Assembly (NCBI RefSeq): GCF_965641715.1
Contig: NZ_OZ282453.1
Reading direction: 5' to 3' (one strand)
Source: Escherichia coli
GTDB lineage: Bacteria; Pseudomonadota; Gammaproteobacteria; Enterobacterales; Enterobacteriaceae
Length of the DNA stretch: 64,000 nt
The notes below the pieces were generated by a model that saw only the letters and a program-made list of their open reading frames with translations, was not told the DNA's origin and made no database searches. Below are positions 50,219 through 55,183 of the stretch, piece after piece; the first letter of the stretch is position 1; every line of letters begins with the position of its first letter. The translations under genes and the position numbers were made by a program.

Positions 50219-51673
50219 ATGTATATCGGGATAGATCTTGGCACCTCGGGCGTAAAAGTTATTTTGCTTAACGAGCAGGGTGAGGTGGTTGCTTCGCAAA
50301 CGGAAAAGCTGACCGTTTCGCGCCCGCATCCACTCTGGTCGGAACAAGACCCGGAACAGTGGTGGCAGTCAACTGATCGCGCAATGAAAGCTCTGGGCGA
50401 TCAGCATTCTCTGCAGGACGTTAAAGCATTGGGTATTGCCGGCCAGATGCACGGAGCAACCTTACTGGATGCTCAACAACGGGTATTGCGCCCTGCCATT
50501 TTGTGGAACGACGGGCGCTGTGCGCAAGAGTGCGCTTTGCTGGAAGCGAGAGTTCCGCAATCACGAGTGATTACCGGCAACCTGATGATGCCCGGATTTA
50601 CTGCGCCTAAATTGCTATGGGTTCAGCGGCATGAGCCGGAGATATTCCGTCAAATCGACAAAGTATTATTACCGAAAGATTACTTGCGTCTGCGTATGAC
50701 GGGGGAGTTTGCCAGCGATATGTCTGACGCAGCTGGCACCATGTGGCTGGATGTCGCAAAGCGTGACTGGAGTGACGTCATGCTGCAGGCTTGCGACTTA
50801 TCTCGTGACCAGATGCCCGCATTATACGAAGGCAGCGAAATTACTGGTGCTTTGTTACCTGAAGTTGCGAAAGCGTGGGGTATGGCGACGGTGCCAGTTG
50901 TCGCAGGCGGTGGCGACAATGCAGCTGGTGCAGTTGGTGTGGGAATGGTTGATGCTAATCAGGCAATGTTATCGCTGGGGACGTCGGGGGTCTATTTTGC
51001 TGTCAGCGAAGGGTTTTTAAGCAAGCCAGAAAGCGCCGTACACAGCTTTTGCCATGCGCTACCGCAGCGTTGGCATTTAATGTCTGTAATGCTGAGTGCA
51101 GCGTCGTGTCTGGATTGGGCCGCGAAATTAACCGGCCTGAGCAATGTCCCAGCTTTAATCGCTGCAGCTCAACAGGCTGATGAAAGTGCCGAGCCAGTTT
51201 GGTTTCTGCCTTATCTTTCCGGTGAGCGTACGCCACACAATAATCCCCAGGCGAAGGGGGTTTTCTTTGGTTTGACTCATCAACATGGCCCCAATGAACT
51301 GGCGCGAGCAGTGCTGGAAGGCGTGGGTTATGCGCTGGCAGATGGCATGGATGTCGTGCATGCCTGCGGCATTAAACCGCAAAGTGTTACGTTGATTGGT
51401 GGCGGGGCGCGTAGTGAGTACTGGCGTCAGATGCTGGCGGATATCAGCGGTCAGCAGCTCGATTACCGTACGGGGGGGGATGTGGGGCCAGCACTGGGCG
51501 CAGCAAGGCTGGCGCAGATTGCGGCGAATCCAGAGAAATCGCTCATTGAGTTGTTGCCGCAACTACCGTTAGAACAGTCGCATCTACCAGATGCGCAGCG
51601 TTATGCCGCTTATCAGCCACGACGAGAAACGTTCCGTCGCCTCTATCAGCAACTTCTGCCATTAATGGCGTAA
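50219..51673 (+). CDS. xylB: Xylulokinase, 484 aa
   Basis: FGGY kinase; length and position match. Confidence 0.95.
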   Translation: MYIGIDLGTSGVKVILLNEQGEVVASQTEKLTVSRPHPLWSEQDPEQWWQSTDRAMKALGDQHSLQDVKALGIAGQMHGATLLDAQQRVLRPAILWNDGRCAQECALLEARVPQSRVITGNLMMPGFTAPKLLWVQRHEPEIFRQIDKVLLPKDYLRLRMTGEFASDMSDAAGTMWLDVAKRDWSDVMLQACDLSRDQMPALYEGSEITGALLPEVAKAWGMATVPVVAGGGDNAAGAVGVGMVDANQAMLSLGTSGVYFAVSEGFLSKPESAVHSFCHALPQRWHLMSVMLSAASCLDWAAKLTGLSNVPALIAAAQQADESAEPVWFLPYLSGERTPHNNPQAKGVFFGLTHQHGPNELARAVLEGVGYALADGMDVVHACGIKPQSVTLIGGGARSEYWRQMLADISGQQLDYRTGGDVGPALGAARLAQIAANPEKSLIELLPQLPLEQSHLPDAQRYAAYQPRRETFRRLYQQLLPLMA

Positions 51674-51841
51674 ACGTTATCCCCTGCCTGACCGGGTGGG
51701 GGATAATTCACATCTATATATCTCAGTAATTAATTAATATTTAGTATGAATTTATTCTGAAAATCATTTGTTAATGGCATTTTTCAGTTTTGTCTTTCGT
51801 TGGTTACTCGTAATGTATCGCTGGTAGATATGGAGATCGTT

Positions 51842-52183
51842 ATGAAAACCTCAAAAACTGTGGCAAAACTATTATTTGTTGTCGGGGCGCTGGTTTATCT
51901 GGTTGGGCTATGGATCTCATGCCCATTGTTGAGTGGAAAAGGCTATTTTCTTGGCGTGTTAATGACAGCAACTTTTGGCAACTATGCATATCTTCGCGCA
52001 GAAAAACTCGGGCAACTGGATAATTTTTTTACCCATATTTGCCAGTTAGTTGCGTTAATCACTATCGGTCTCTTGTTTATCGGTGTTTTAAATGCACCTA
52101 TCAATGCTTATGAAATGGTGATCTACCCCATCGCCTTTTTTGTCTGCTTGTTTGGTCAAATGCGTTTGTTTCGCTCGGCATGA
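51842..52183 (+). CDS. yiaB: Small inner-membrane protein YiaB, 113 aa
   Basis: ATG 51842 preceded by SD ggag; single YiaAB-type hairpin domain. Confidence 0.8.
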   Translation: MKTSKTVAKLLFVVGALVYLVGLWISCPLLSGKGYFLGVLMTATFGNYAYLRAEKLGQLDNFFTHICQLVALITIGLLFIGVLNAPINAYEMVIYPIAFFVCLFGQMRLFRSA

Positions 52184-52228
52184 GCAACATAAAGCTCTTA
52201 CACATTCAGGAATGAAAGGAATACTGTG

Positions 52229-52666
52229 ATGGACAACAAAATATCAACCTATTCACCGGCCTTTAGTATTGTGTCATGGATAGCTCTCGTTGGTGGTATC
52301 GTTACCTATCTGTTAGGGCTATGGAATGCAGAGATGCAGTTAAATGAAAAAGGATATTATTTTGCCGTACTGGTATTAGGACTGTTTTCTGCGGCGTCTT
52401 ATCAAAAGACCGTTCGGGACAAGTATGAAGGCATACCGACCACTTCCATTTATTATATGACCTGCCTGACTGTCTTTATTATCTCTGTTGCATTACTGAT
52501 GGTAGGTCTGTGGAATGCGACATTATTACTCAGCGAAAAAGGTTTTTATGGACTGGCTTTCTTCTTAAGCTTGTTTGGTGCAGTAGCGGTGCAGAAAAAT
52601 ATTCGTGATGCCGGAATAAACCCACCAAAAGAAACACAGGTTACCCAGGAAGAATACAGCGAATAA
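52229..52666 (+). CDS. yiaA: Inner-membrane protein YiaA, 145 aa
   Basis: Two tandem YiaAB-type domains ([17 protein letters not shown]... and [17 protein letters not shown]...). Confidence 0.8.
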
Positions 52667-52707
52667 CTCACGTAAGCCCGGTCTGTCCAATGTGACCGGG
52701 CTTTTAC

Positions 52708-53703
52708 TTAACTCACTAATCTGTTTCTGTCGATTCGTTGTACCAGCATAGAAAGTAACAAACTCGCTGCCAACGTCGCGCAAAAAATCCAAATAATATC
52801 CAGTATTGGCCAATTTTTAAGCTCAATTCCCCGGGTGCGCAGCGCATGGATAATCAAGGCGTGGAATCCGTATATACCCAACGAATGGCGGGAGATTAAG
52901 CCAAGTCCGCGAATGGTACGCGTATCCAGCGTGTTTTTAACCAGAGTCAATAGCGCGATTGCGCAGATAAAAACCATCGGCCCACAGTAAAGATACCAGG
53001 TATCGGCAAAATTTCCGCGCCACTGCAATTCATATAATGTCCCGCGAGAGATAATAAAAACTCCCGTCGCAAACAGTGCGGTGCTCACCCACGACAGTGC
53101 TTTATGCTGTGTGTCCATCATCCCTATAGCGCGGCCCAACATGCCATACAGAATGTAATAAAAAGTATCGCCATTGATATATAAGTTAATTGGCAGCCAT
53201 TCAAAACCGTCGATTTTCTGCGGCACGGTGTTTGGGTTAGCGATGATACCAATCACCACCATTAGCACCAGCAACATTTTTCCGCCGACGTTCTTCACCT
53301 GAATCAGCGGTGAAACCAGATAAATCACCGCAATCGCGAAGAAAAACCATAAGTGGTAAAACACTGGCTTTTGCAGCAGGTTTTTCAGCGCTAACTCCAC
53401 ATTAATGGAGGTAAACAGTGCAATGTAGAGCAGCGCGATTGCGCTATAAAAAAACAGACATAAGCCGATACGCAAGAAATGGCGCGGCTGGGCGCTGCGT
53501 TCGCCAAAAAAGAGATAGCCGGAAATCATGAAAAATAGCGGCACGCTGACACGAGAGGCAGAGTTCAGAACATTGGCGATATCCCAGGTGACGGGGCTAA
53601 CACTATGAGCATTGGTCACATACCAGGTAGTGGTGTGAATCATCACCACCATTAAACACGCTATCCCTCGCAGGTTATCAATCCAGTAAATTTTGGGCTG
53701 CAT
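52708..53703 (-). CDS. wecH: Acyltransferase-3 family O-acetyltransferase, 331 aa
   Basis: About 10 transmembrane helices, acyltransferase-3 family; position between yiaA and ysaB. Confidence 0.88.
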
Positions 53704-53877: not shown

Positions 53878-54177
53878 ATGATGATGAACTCTTTCTTTCC
53901 GGCAATGGCGCTTATGGTGCTAGTGGGTTGTTCTACACCGTCACCCGTGCAGAAAGCACAACGGGTAAAGGTTGATCCTCTGCGTTCGTTGAATATGGAA
54001 GCGTTATGCAAGGATCAGGCGGCAAAACGTTATAACACCGGCGAGCAAAAAATCGACGTCACCGCCTTCGAACAGTTCCAGGGAAGCTATGAAATGCGCG
54101 GTTATACCTTCCGTAAAGAGCAGTTTGTCTGTTCTTTTGACGCAGATGGCCATTTTTTGCATCTTTCCATGCGTTAA
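53878..54177 (+). CDS. ysaB: Lipoprotein YsaB, 99 aa
   Basis: Signal peptide with lipobox LVGCS; upstream of glyQ. Confidence 0.8.
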   Translation: MMMNSFFPAMALMVLVGCSTPSPVQKAQRVKVDPLRSLNMEALCKDQAAKRYNTGEQKIDVTAFEQFQGSYEMRGYTFRKEQFVCSFDADGHFLHLSMR

Positions 54178-54271: not shown

Positions 54272-55183
54272 ATGCAAAAGTTTGATACCAGGACCTTCCA
54301 GGGCTTGATCCTGACCTTACAGGATTACTGGGCTCGCCAGGGCTGCACCATTGTTCAACCATTGGACATGGAAGTCGGCGCGGGAACCTCTCACCCAATG
54401 ACCTGTCTGCGCGCGCTGGGGCCAGAACCGATGGCGGCTGCTTATGTTCAGCCTTCTCGTCGCCCGACCGATGGTCGCTACGGCGAAAACCCCAACCGTT
54501 TACAGCACTACTATCAGTTCCAGGTGGTCATTAAGCCATCGCCGGACAATATTCAGGAGCTGTACCTTGGTTCTCTGAAAGAGCTGGGCATGGACCCGAC
54601 TATCCACGATATCCGTTTCGTGGAAGATAACTGGGAAAACCCGACGCTGGGTGCCTGGGGACTGGGCTGGGAAGTGTGGCTAAACGGCATGGAAGTGACG
54701 CAGTTCACTTACTTCCAGCAGGTTGGTGGTCTGGAGTGTAAACCGGTTACCGGCGAGATCACCTACGGTCTGGAACGTCTGGCCATGTACATTCAGGGCG
54801 TGGACAGCGTTTACGACCTGGTCTGGAGCGACGGCCCGCTGGGTAAAACCACCTACGGCGACGTGTTCCATCAGAACGAAGTGGAGCAGTCCACTTACAA
54901 CTTCGAATACGCGGATGTGGACTTCCTGTTCACCTGCTTTGAGCAGTACGAGAAAGAAGCGCAGCAGCTGCTGGCGCTGGAAAATCCGCTGCCGCTGCCA
55001 GCTTACGAGCGTATTCTGAAAGCCGCCCACAGCTTCAACCTGCTGGATGCGCGTAAAGCCATCTCCGTCACTGAGCGTCAGCGCTACATTCTGCGCATTC
55101 GCACCCTGACCAAAGCAGTGGCAGAAGCATACTACGCTTCCCGTGAAGCCCTCGGCTTCCCGATGTGCAACAAAGATAAGTAA
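54272..55183 (+). CDS. glyQ: Glycine--tRNA ligase alpha subunit, 303 aa
   Basis: Full-length match. Confidence 0.96.

Follow-up and report, generated by a model that had tools for sequence, protein, structure and literature searches.

YiaA and YiaB of Escherichia coli: tandem two-hairpin membrane proteins with an ancient internal duplication and a divergent enterobacterial paralogue

YiaA and YiaB of E. coli are the name-giving members of a family catalogued in both Pfam (PF05360, 'yiaA/B two helix domain') and TCDB (9.B.44, YiaAB family), in which each protein is described as carrying two tandem two-helix domains, the helices of each pair being joined by a conserved linker. PMC3061005, which cites Saier 2003 and TC 9.B.44, already describes a duplication from two to four helices for YiaAB, and groups the family with the F-type ATPase c subunit and the duplicated V-type proteolipids as cases in which a two-helix unit was duplicated. 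YiaA and YiaB are reminiscent of these proteins in that a hairpin with a short, conserved polar turn has been duplicated in tandem. However, the mid-helix ion-binding carboxylate of the c subunit is absent from both, E40 and E103 lying at helix ends by the turn; furthermore, the ATP-synt_C profile was unmatched in 53 YiaAB members, no ATPase genes were seen among the gene neighbors, and the structure searches gave no specific match. The likeness is one of evolutionary mode only. The internal duplication of YiaA is real but already known, both Pfam and TCDB having recorded it for some twenty years; what is added here is the order of the duplications, the fixed 63-residue period, the degenerate second hairpin and faster rate of YiaB, and the lineage-specific loss of yiaA at this locus. 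The significance is small, as these are two among many small inner-membrane proteins of E. coli that lack an assigned function.

The window analysed here is a 64,000-nucleotide stretch of an E. coli chromosome, in which yiaB and yiaA together occupy positions 51842-52666 and, according to the RefSeq annotation, are arranged in the order xylB-yiaB-yiaA-wecH, with wecH on the opposite strand (Table 1). The coordinates, the lengths (113 and 145 aa) and the three peptides quoted in a preliminary description of this locus were all exact, the peptides mapping to YiaA residues 29-64 and 92-127 and to YiaB residues 21-52. Both proteins lie above every curated cutoff: PF05360 is matched by YiaA with 135.5 bits (E 7e-40) and by YiaB with 44.4 bits (E 1.9e-11) against a gathering score of 26.6 bits, the NCBIfam YiaA model NF008482 gives YiaA 197.8 bits (cutoff 150), and the YiaB model NF008492 gives YiaB 169.8 bits (cutoff 130). 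As the NCBIfam cross-matches between the two (75.9 and 46.4 bits) fall under the cutoff, yiaA and yiaB are each placed in their own model. No difference from the described family was seen in these genes: both proteins carry the two tandem two-helix domains, and the helix pairs with their conserved linker are recovered by prediction (AlphaFold2, hydropathy and the turn GLWNA..L.EKG[YF]Y).

The 1.3-kb stretch around the two genes was matched in 5425 of 5426 complete E. coli genomes. The yiaB ORF is intact in 5369 of the 5426, making it a core gene, and yiaA is present in 5419 and intact in 5370. In E. coli FDAARGOS_944 (NZ_CP065613.1) an IS1 family transposase splits the xylB-yiaB-yiaA-wecH stretch (equivalent to window 51600-52900), and a divergent allele class of yiaA, at 90-95% identity, is found in 1119 E. 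coli genomes.

Table 1. Positions of the features discussed in the text, in window numbering unless preceded by an L-number, which denotes a related locus
Feature	Position	Strand	Remarks
14-bp stem-loop	51676..51707	+	3 nt past the xylB stop; -21.5 kcal/mol, z = -3.7, 0/200 shuffles as stable
yiaB Shine-Dalgarno GGAG	51832-51835	+	6 nt 5' of ATG
yiaB CDS	51842..52183	+	113 aa plus stop; ORF list, NCBIfam NF008492, RefSeq annotation
YiaB hairpin 1	51866..51991	+	residues 9-50; repeat-HMM i-E 3.6e-7; keeps GLW...SGKGYF
YiaB hairpin 2	52025..52159	+	residues 62-106; repeat-HMM i-E 2.4e-7; degenerate: GVLNAPINAYEMVIY
yiaA Shine-Dalgarno AAGGA	52216-52220	+	8 nt 5' of ATG
yiaA CDS	52229..52666	+	145 aa plus stop; ORF list, NCBIfam NF008482
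YiaA hairpin 1	52253..52423	+	residues 9-65; repeat-HMM 106.8 bits; motif YQKTVRD
YiaA hairpin 2	52442..52609	+	residues 72-127; repeat-HMM 100.7 bits; motif VQKNIRD
GC-rich stem-loop	52672..52707	both	between convergent yiaA and wecH; candidate bidirectional terminator
yiaB-only loci	L012:3260-3440, L013:3260-3460, L007:4270-4400, L008:4001-4384		compare window 52184-52707
Loci with ~500-aa ORF	L023, L025, L026, L037, L044, L049, L055, L056, L066, L069		e.g. L066:7543-9048
Further loci with ~500-aa ORF	L070, L084, L102, L103, L105, L116, L120 and others		
Crp/Fnr-like loci	L030, L054, L063, L067, L100, L106, L113, L119, L132		e.g. L067:222-785

The preliminary description had proposed that YiaA contains two copies of a hairpin-like domain and had named internal self-alignment as the check. 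This alignment recovered a highly significant repeat, the N-terminal half of YiaA aligning to the C-terminal half with a Smith-Waterman score of 102 (z = 17), as against 24.4 +/- 4.5 for 2000 composition-preserving shuffles, none of which reached 102. The two quoted cores are identical at 18 of 36 residues and the whole hairpins at 18 of 57, without a gap. Likewise, an hhalign comparison of repeat-1 and repeat-2 profiles, each built from 44 diverse family sequences, returned a probability of 99.8% and E = 5.7e-28 over 57 ungapped columns, so that the proposed pair of hairpins stands. PF05360 also matches YiaA in two stretches, one of which covers residues 12-64, and the second hairpin starts 63 residues past the first. 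The positions common to both repeats are polar motifs rather than the hydrophobic stretches: a turn motif G-L-W-N-A-x-[ML]-x-L-x-E-K-G-[YF]-Y is found between the helices of every YiaA hairpin, and a Q-K-x-x-R-D motif ends the second helix of each.

YiaB had been credited with a single copy of the hairpin, and on this point the preliminary description has to be corrected, since PF05360 matches YiaB too in two stretches and its C-terminal half aligns with the second hairpin of YiaA (z = 12.3). The N-terminal halves of the two proteins align with z = 9.8, and in a full-length local alignment YiaB is colinear with all of YiaA (z = 17), which upholds the description of the genes as tandem paralogues. 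The first half of YiaA and the second half of YiaB show no such similarity (z = 0.3), and the two halves of E. coli YiaB are not significantly alike (z = -0.2), its second hairpin being recognised only via YiaA-type profiles and via orthologues. In E. coli the second repeat of YiaB reads IGVLNAPINAYEMVIY and has lost the LWN/EKG motif, which explains why it was missed earlier. It is still legible in Citrobacter (VGVWNAPLAPIEKALY), and further YiaB orthologues preserve the family motif in repeat 2 (VGVWNAPLLPVERVVY and VGVWNAPLSPLEKGLY); the Salmonella and Citrobacter proteins retain GVWNAP..P.EK/ER. In a joint alignment G22, K33, G34 and E91 are invariant in YiaA and YiaB; three of these columns lie in repeat 1 (the G of GLW and the K-G of its EKG), and the fourth is the EKG glutamate of repeat 2.

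Profiles specific for each repeat, built from 44 YiaA-type proteins with YiaB excluded, assign the two halves of YiaB to different repeats. Hairpin 1 of E. coli YiaB scores 26.4 bits with the repeat-1 profile and 13.9 with the repeat-2 profile, and hairpin 2 scores 30.5 bits with the repeat-2 profile and 12.6 with the repeat-1 profile. The same assignment, with a margin of 12-23 bits, was obtained in all five species profiled (E. coli, two Citrobacter, Salmonella and Klebsiella oxytoca). Because the halves of YiaB match the respective YiaA hairpins and the corresponding repeat-specific profiles, the duplication of the hairpin predates the split of YiaA and YiaB. Judged from these sequence comparisons, the order is a hairpin duplication first, ancient and shared across phyla, and a gene duplication later, in the Enterobacteriaceae. 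The earlier notion of a family built by serial duplication thus holds as far as duplication is concerned, with the order being hairpin before gene. Nothing found contradicts the two-hairpin architecture or this order of events.

The breadth and fixity of the architecture were apparent from several searches. An exhaustive search of 1.84 billion cluster representatives yielded 524 clusters at 50% identity, a search with YiaA gave more than 7900 matches, and a DNA-motif scan of one genome per species identified at least 120 loci in at least seven phyla. At least 69 of these loci are from Bacteroidota, the others being from beta- and gamma-Proteobacteria, Actinomycetota, Chloroflexota, Cyanobacteria, Desulfobacterota and Acidobacteriota. 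Among the loci listed, 116 of 122 family ORFs contain two hairpins, and 107 of these 116 have a period of exactly 63 residues, the value of E. coli YiaA, which stays fixed from Bacteroidota to Enterobacteria. Five of the six one-hairpin ORFs among the loci listed are cut by the end of the locus, and a 106-aa ORF of Holophagaceae (L087:3643-3963) is the sole one-hairpin case lying within its locus.

One-hairpin members were also considered as possible ancestors of the family, and nearly all proved to be fragments or frameshifts. Four complete one-hairpin proteins (P0240, P0248, P0261 and P0169) were rejected as ancestral forms, their scores with the repeat-1 and repeat-2 profiles being equal; from their sequences they look like repeat-collapse hybrids, in which a repeat-1 front is joined to a repeat-2 back at the GLWNA/EKG turn. 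The 82% identity of P0169 to E. coli YiaA fits an inter-repeat deletion. A different anomaly is seen in the 158-aa protein P0243 (L006:70-546), both halves of which are repeat-1-like (55.6 and 60.0 bits, versus 43.5 and 42.7 bits on repeat 2) and unusually alike to each other; this points to a possible independent re-duplication or gene conversion between the repeats. A Pfam scan of 53 family members found no consistent related family, only scattered sub-threshold matches to DUF3040, HupE_UreJ, DUF1218 and EamA.

The preliminary description had called these small membrane proteins and had suggested topology prediction, and both hydropathy and AlphaFold2 indeed predict four transmembrane helices in each. 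The AlphaFold2 model of YiaA, computed with a 53-sequence alignment (pLDDT 92.6, pTM 0.83), places helices at residues 10-33/38-66 (pLDDT > 96) and 73-96/101-130, with 4-residue turns. The YiaB model (pLDDT 86.7) has the same layout, with helices at 5-25/30-55 and 61-84/89-112, and is not fully independent of the former as its alignment contained YiaA homologues. Lysines and arginines number seven in the N-terminal end, middle loop and proximal C-tail taken together, versus two in the two turns, and under the positive-inside rule this suggests an N-in/C-in orientation. The W-N...E-K-G-Y turns would consequently be periplasmic and the Q-K-x-x-R-D motifs cytoplasmic. We observed no soluble domain, catalytic motif or mid-helix charge in either protein. 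A PDB sequence search with YiaA gave only a chance aquaporin match (E = 2.9), and Foldseek against the PDB returned nothing at E <= 0.001 and no informative structural neighbor.

YiaB has a far narrower distribution and a faster tempo. A search for YiaB homologues gave 141 matches, the named sources of which are all Escherichia, Shigella, Citrobacter or Klebsiella. Between E. coli and Salmonella or Citrobacter, dN is 0.33-0.35 for yiaB versus 0.10-0.11 for yiaA, a roughly threefold excess that also holds against xylB and wecH. At the same time dN/dS for yiaB, taken within Escherichia as inter-genus dS is saturated, is 0.06-0.18 between species, implying purifying selection. YiaB has lost 4-5 linker residues, resulting in a period of 59, and neither of its hairpins retains the Q-K-x-x-R-D motif; the Escherichia proteins have, in addition, lost most of the hairpin-2 turn motif. 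YiaB is, on the sequence evidence, a narrow, fast-evolving enterobacterial paralogue under purifying selection, and the pair offers a clean case of asymmetric divergence after gene duplication.

We also found yiaB without yiaA between xylB, or what replaces it, and wecH on contigs encoding the YiaB proteins of E. albertii, E. fergusonii, C. freundii and K. oxytoca, where the species labels are the names attached to identical proteins. In the two Escherichia loci of this kind the yiaA ORF and its terminator have been cleanly deleted, and a remnant of the yiaA ribosome-binding site, CTGAAAGGAA, is kept; the survival of this remnant implies that yiaA was deleted there rather than inserted elsewhere. 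The paralogue lost at the yiaB-only loci is the conserved one, yiaA. The retention of YiaB where yiaA was excised might reflect a distinct, lineage-specific role for YiaB rather than redundancy, a proposal that we regard as tentative and rather doubtful. The repeated loss of yiaA from these loci with yiaB kept, and the conserved regulator neighbors in Bacteroidota, are two leads on the function of the family.

Taken together, the best overall explanation is that yiaA and yiaB are catalogued YiaAB members that arose by an ancient hairpin duplication and a later enterobacterial gene duplication giving YiaB, to which we assign a probability of roughly 0.85. Under this explanation each is a compact, predicted four-helix membrane protein made of two tandem two-helix hairpins of about 57 residues, and a whole-gene duplication in Enterobacteriaceae produced YiaB, which then evolved about threefold faster and lost motifs, yet under purifying selection. 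The halves of YiaA could conceivably be alike by convergence on a shared transmembrane-helix composition rather than by common descent, since both are hydrophobic helices and short membrane segments often align spuriously; yet hydrophobic composition is no explanation for a repeat that exceeds all 2000 composition-preserving shuffles, and with polar conserved positions, a gapless profile-profile alignment and a fixed 63-residue period the chance of convergence is practically negligible. It is also extremely improbable that YiaB consists of one hairpin and an unrelated C-terminal half, YiaA having gained its second hairpin after the gene split. The dissimilarity of the halves of YiaB to each other and of its C-terminal half to the YiaA N-terminal half would fit that history, as would the lack of a visible LWN/EKG motif in residues 80-95 of E. 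coli YiaB, but the C-terminal half does match YiaA hairpin 2 and PF05360, with a composition artefact excluded by the shuffles, its assignment by repeat-specific profiles is reproduced in five species, GVWNAPL.P.EK/ER is kept in repeat 2 of Citrobacter and Salmonella YiaB, and proteins with two hairpins and a 63-aa period occur across phyla without YiaB. The loss of family motifs, the threefold amino-acid rate and the many truncated variants in databases might instead suggest that YiaB no longer functions and is decaying towards a pseudogene. This is very unlikely given its low dN/dS between Escherichia species, its intact ORF in nearly all E. coli genomes, its status as the copy kept where yiaA is deleted, and its confidently predicted four-helix fold.

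The preliminary description had asked for co-expression data with xylAB, which suggests a link of yiaBA to these genes. The tandem yiaB-yiaA pair lies between xylB and wecH also in Salmonella, one Citrobacter species and K. pneumoniae. A stable stem-loop just past the xylB stop, not picked up by a simple terminator scan, is the probable 3' boundary of the xylAB transcript; between it and yiaB lies an AT-rich spacer of some 135 nt, the whole xylB-yiaB gap being 168 bp. A promoter consensus scan of this spacer found no plus-strand site and fewer matches than in shuffles. In a ChIP study (PMC10127797) yiaB and yiaA are treated as separate transcription units, each with its own promoter. The stem-loop between yiaA and wecH is stable in both directions (-19.1 kcal/mol and z = -4.9 on the plus strand, -18.8 kcal/mol and z = -4.1 on the minus strand), and the E. 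albertii-like and E. fergusonii-like loci have lost it along with yiaA. In the E. albertii-like locus yiaB is present with xylAB absent upstream, and in Hafnia and Providencia yiaA occurs alone among unrelated genes that provide no functional clue.

In the Bacteroidota we observed two recurrent kinds of neighbor. In 20 of the 56 listed Bacteroidota loci with sufficient upstream DNA, the yiaA homologue is preceded, at a distance of 70-320 bp, by a divergently transcribed ORF (about 490-505 aa) that is helical and TPR-like; this ORF spans Flavobacteriia, Sphingobacteriia and Chitinophagia and belongs to no Pfam family. One such ORF matches the NCBIfam model BT2802 (RusR, a candidate ribose-PUL activator) over its full length, with 39 bits against a cutoff of 550 (E 5e-10). 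Nine other listed Bacteroidota loci have a Crp/Fnr-like, cyclic-nucleotide-binding ORF of about 187 aa located 9-83 bp upstream, on the same strand in eight and divergent in L030. From these gene neighborhoods it appears that about half of the listed Bacteroidota yiaA homologues adjoin a candidate dedicated regulator, either distantly RusR-like or Crp/Fnr-like. On a likewise tentative and rather doubtful reading, the adjacent regulators could offer a first experimental handle on the signal that induces the YiaAB family.

With respect to the role of the proteins, the preliminary description spoke of an unknown function, and in agreement with this the literature searched on yiaA, yiaB, PF05360 and YiaAB mentions them only in lists, in strain genotypes and in a single Lrp-mutant ChIP example, and gives neither a phenotype nor a mechanism. 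A role for yiaBA as accessory genes in xylose use, transcribed together with xylAB as part of the xylose operon, might be surmised from their position on the same strand directly 3' of xylB in E. coli, Salmonella, Citrobacter and Klebsiella, but the hairpin and the 168-bp AT-rich spacer after xylB, the separate promoters in the literature, the persistence of yiaB without xylAB in the E. albertii-like locus, and the unrelated contexts of yiaA in Hafnia and Providencia, as of the homologues in other phyla, make it highly improbable, and the suggested link to xylAB is accordingly not supported. Both genes would rather be expressed from their own promoters, outside the xylAB transcript. The lack of a catalytic motif, soluble domain or mid-membrane charge makes a non-enzymatic mode of action the most likely, in which conserved interfacial polar belts may mediate helix packing and contacts. 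We give even odds to the more specific proposal that YiaA and YiaB form a non-enzymatic, self-associating or partner-binding membrane module. The main alternative is an oligomeric channel or porter for small solutes, made up of YiaA alone or of YiaA and YiaB together. Such a role would accord with the TCDB class 9.B (putative transporter) listing, the very high conservation of all four helices (about 50% identity between phyla) with their small-residue packing motifs, the Bacteroidota regulators, which suggest inducible expression, and the appearance of yiaB in round one of a D-alanine export screen. Nevertheless, yiaB was not seen again in later rounds of the screen, none of the helices has a charged or polar residue at its middle, there is no structural match to known channels, and the literature searched yielded no transport data for YiaA or YiaB; we therefore consider a channel or porter unlikely, and favor the self-associating or partner-binding module.

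Finally, the segment around yiaBA differs from its flank in its synonymous divergence. Between Escherichia species (window 50219-53703 versus 54272-55183, compared with L012 and L013) dS of xylB, yiaB and wecH is 0.85 to above 2 and partly saturated, while that of the adjacent glyQ is 0.08-0.22. Together with the divergent yiaA allele class within E. coli, this suggests that the xylB-wecH segment contains old recombining alleles or has undergone exchange, and the strong codon bias of glyQ may contribute to the difference. Between wecH and glyQ the window also has a plus-strand ORF of 99 aa (53878-54177) with a lipoprotein-type signal (…LMVLVGC|STP), and in related loci the ORF at this position matches the Pfam family PF13983 (YsaB).
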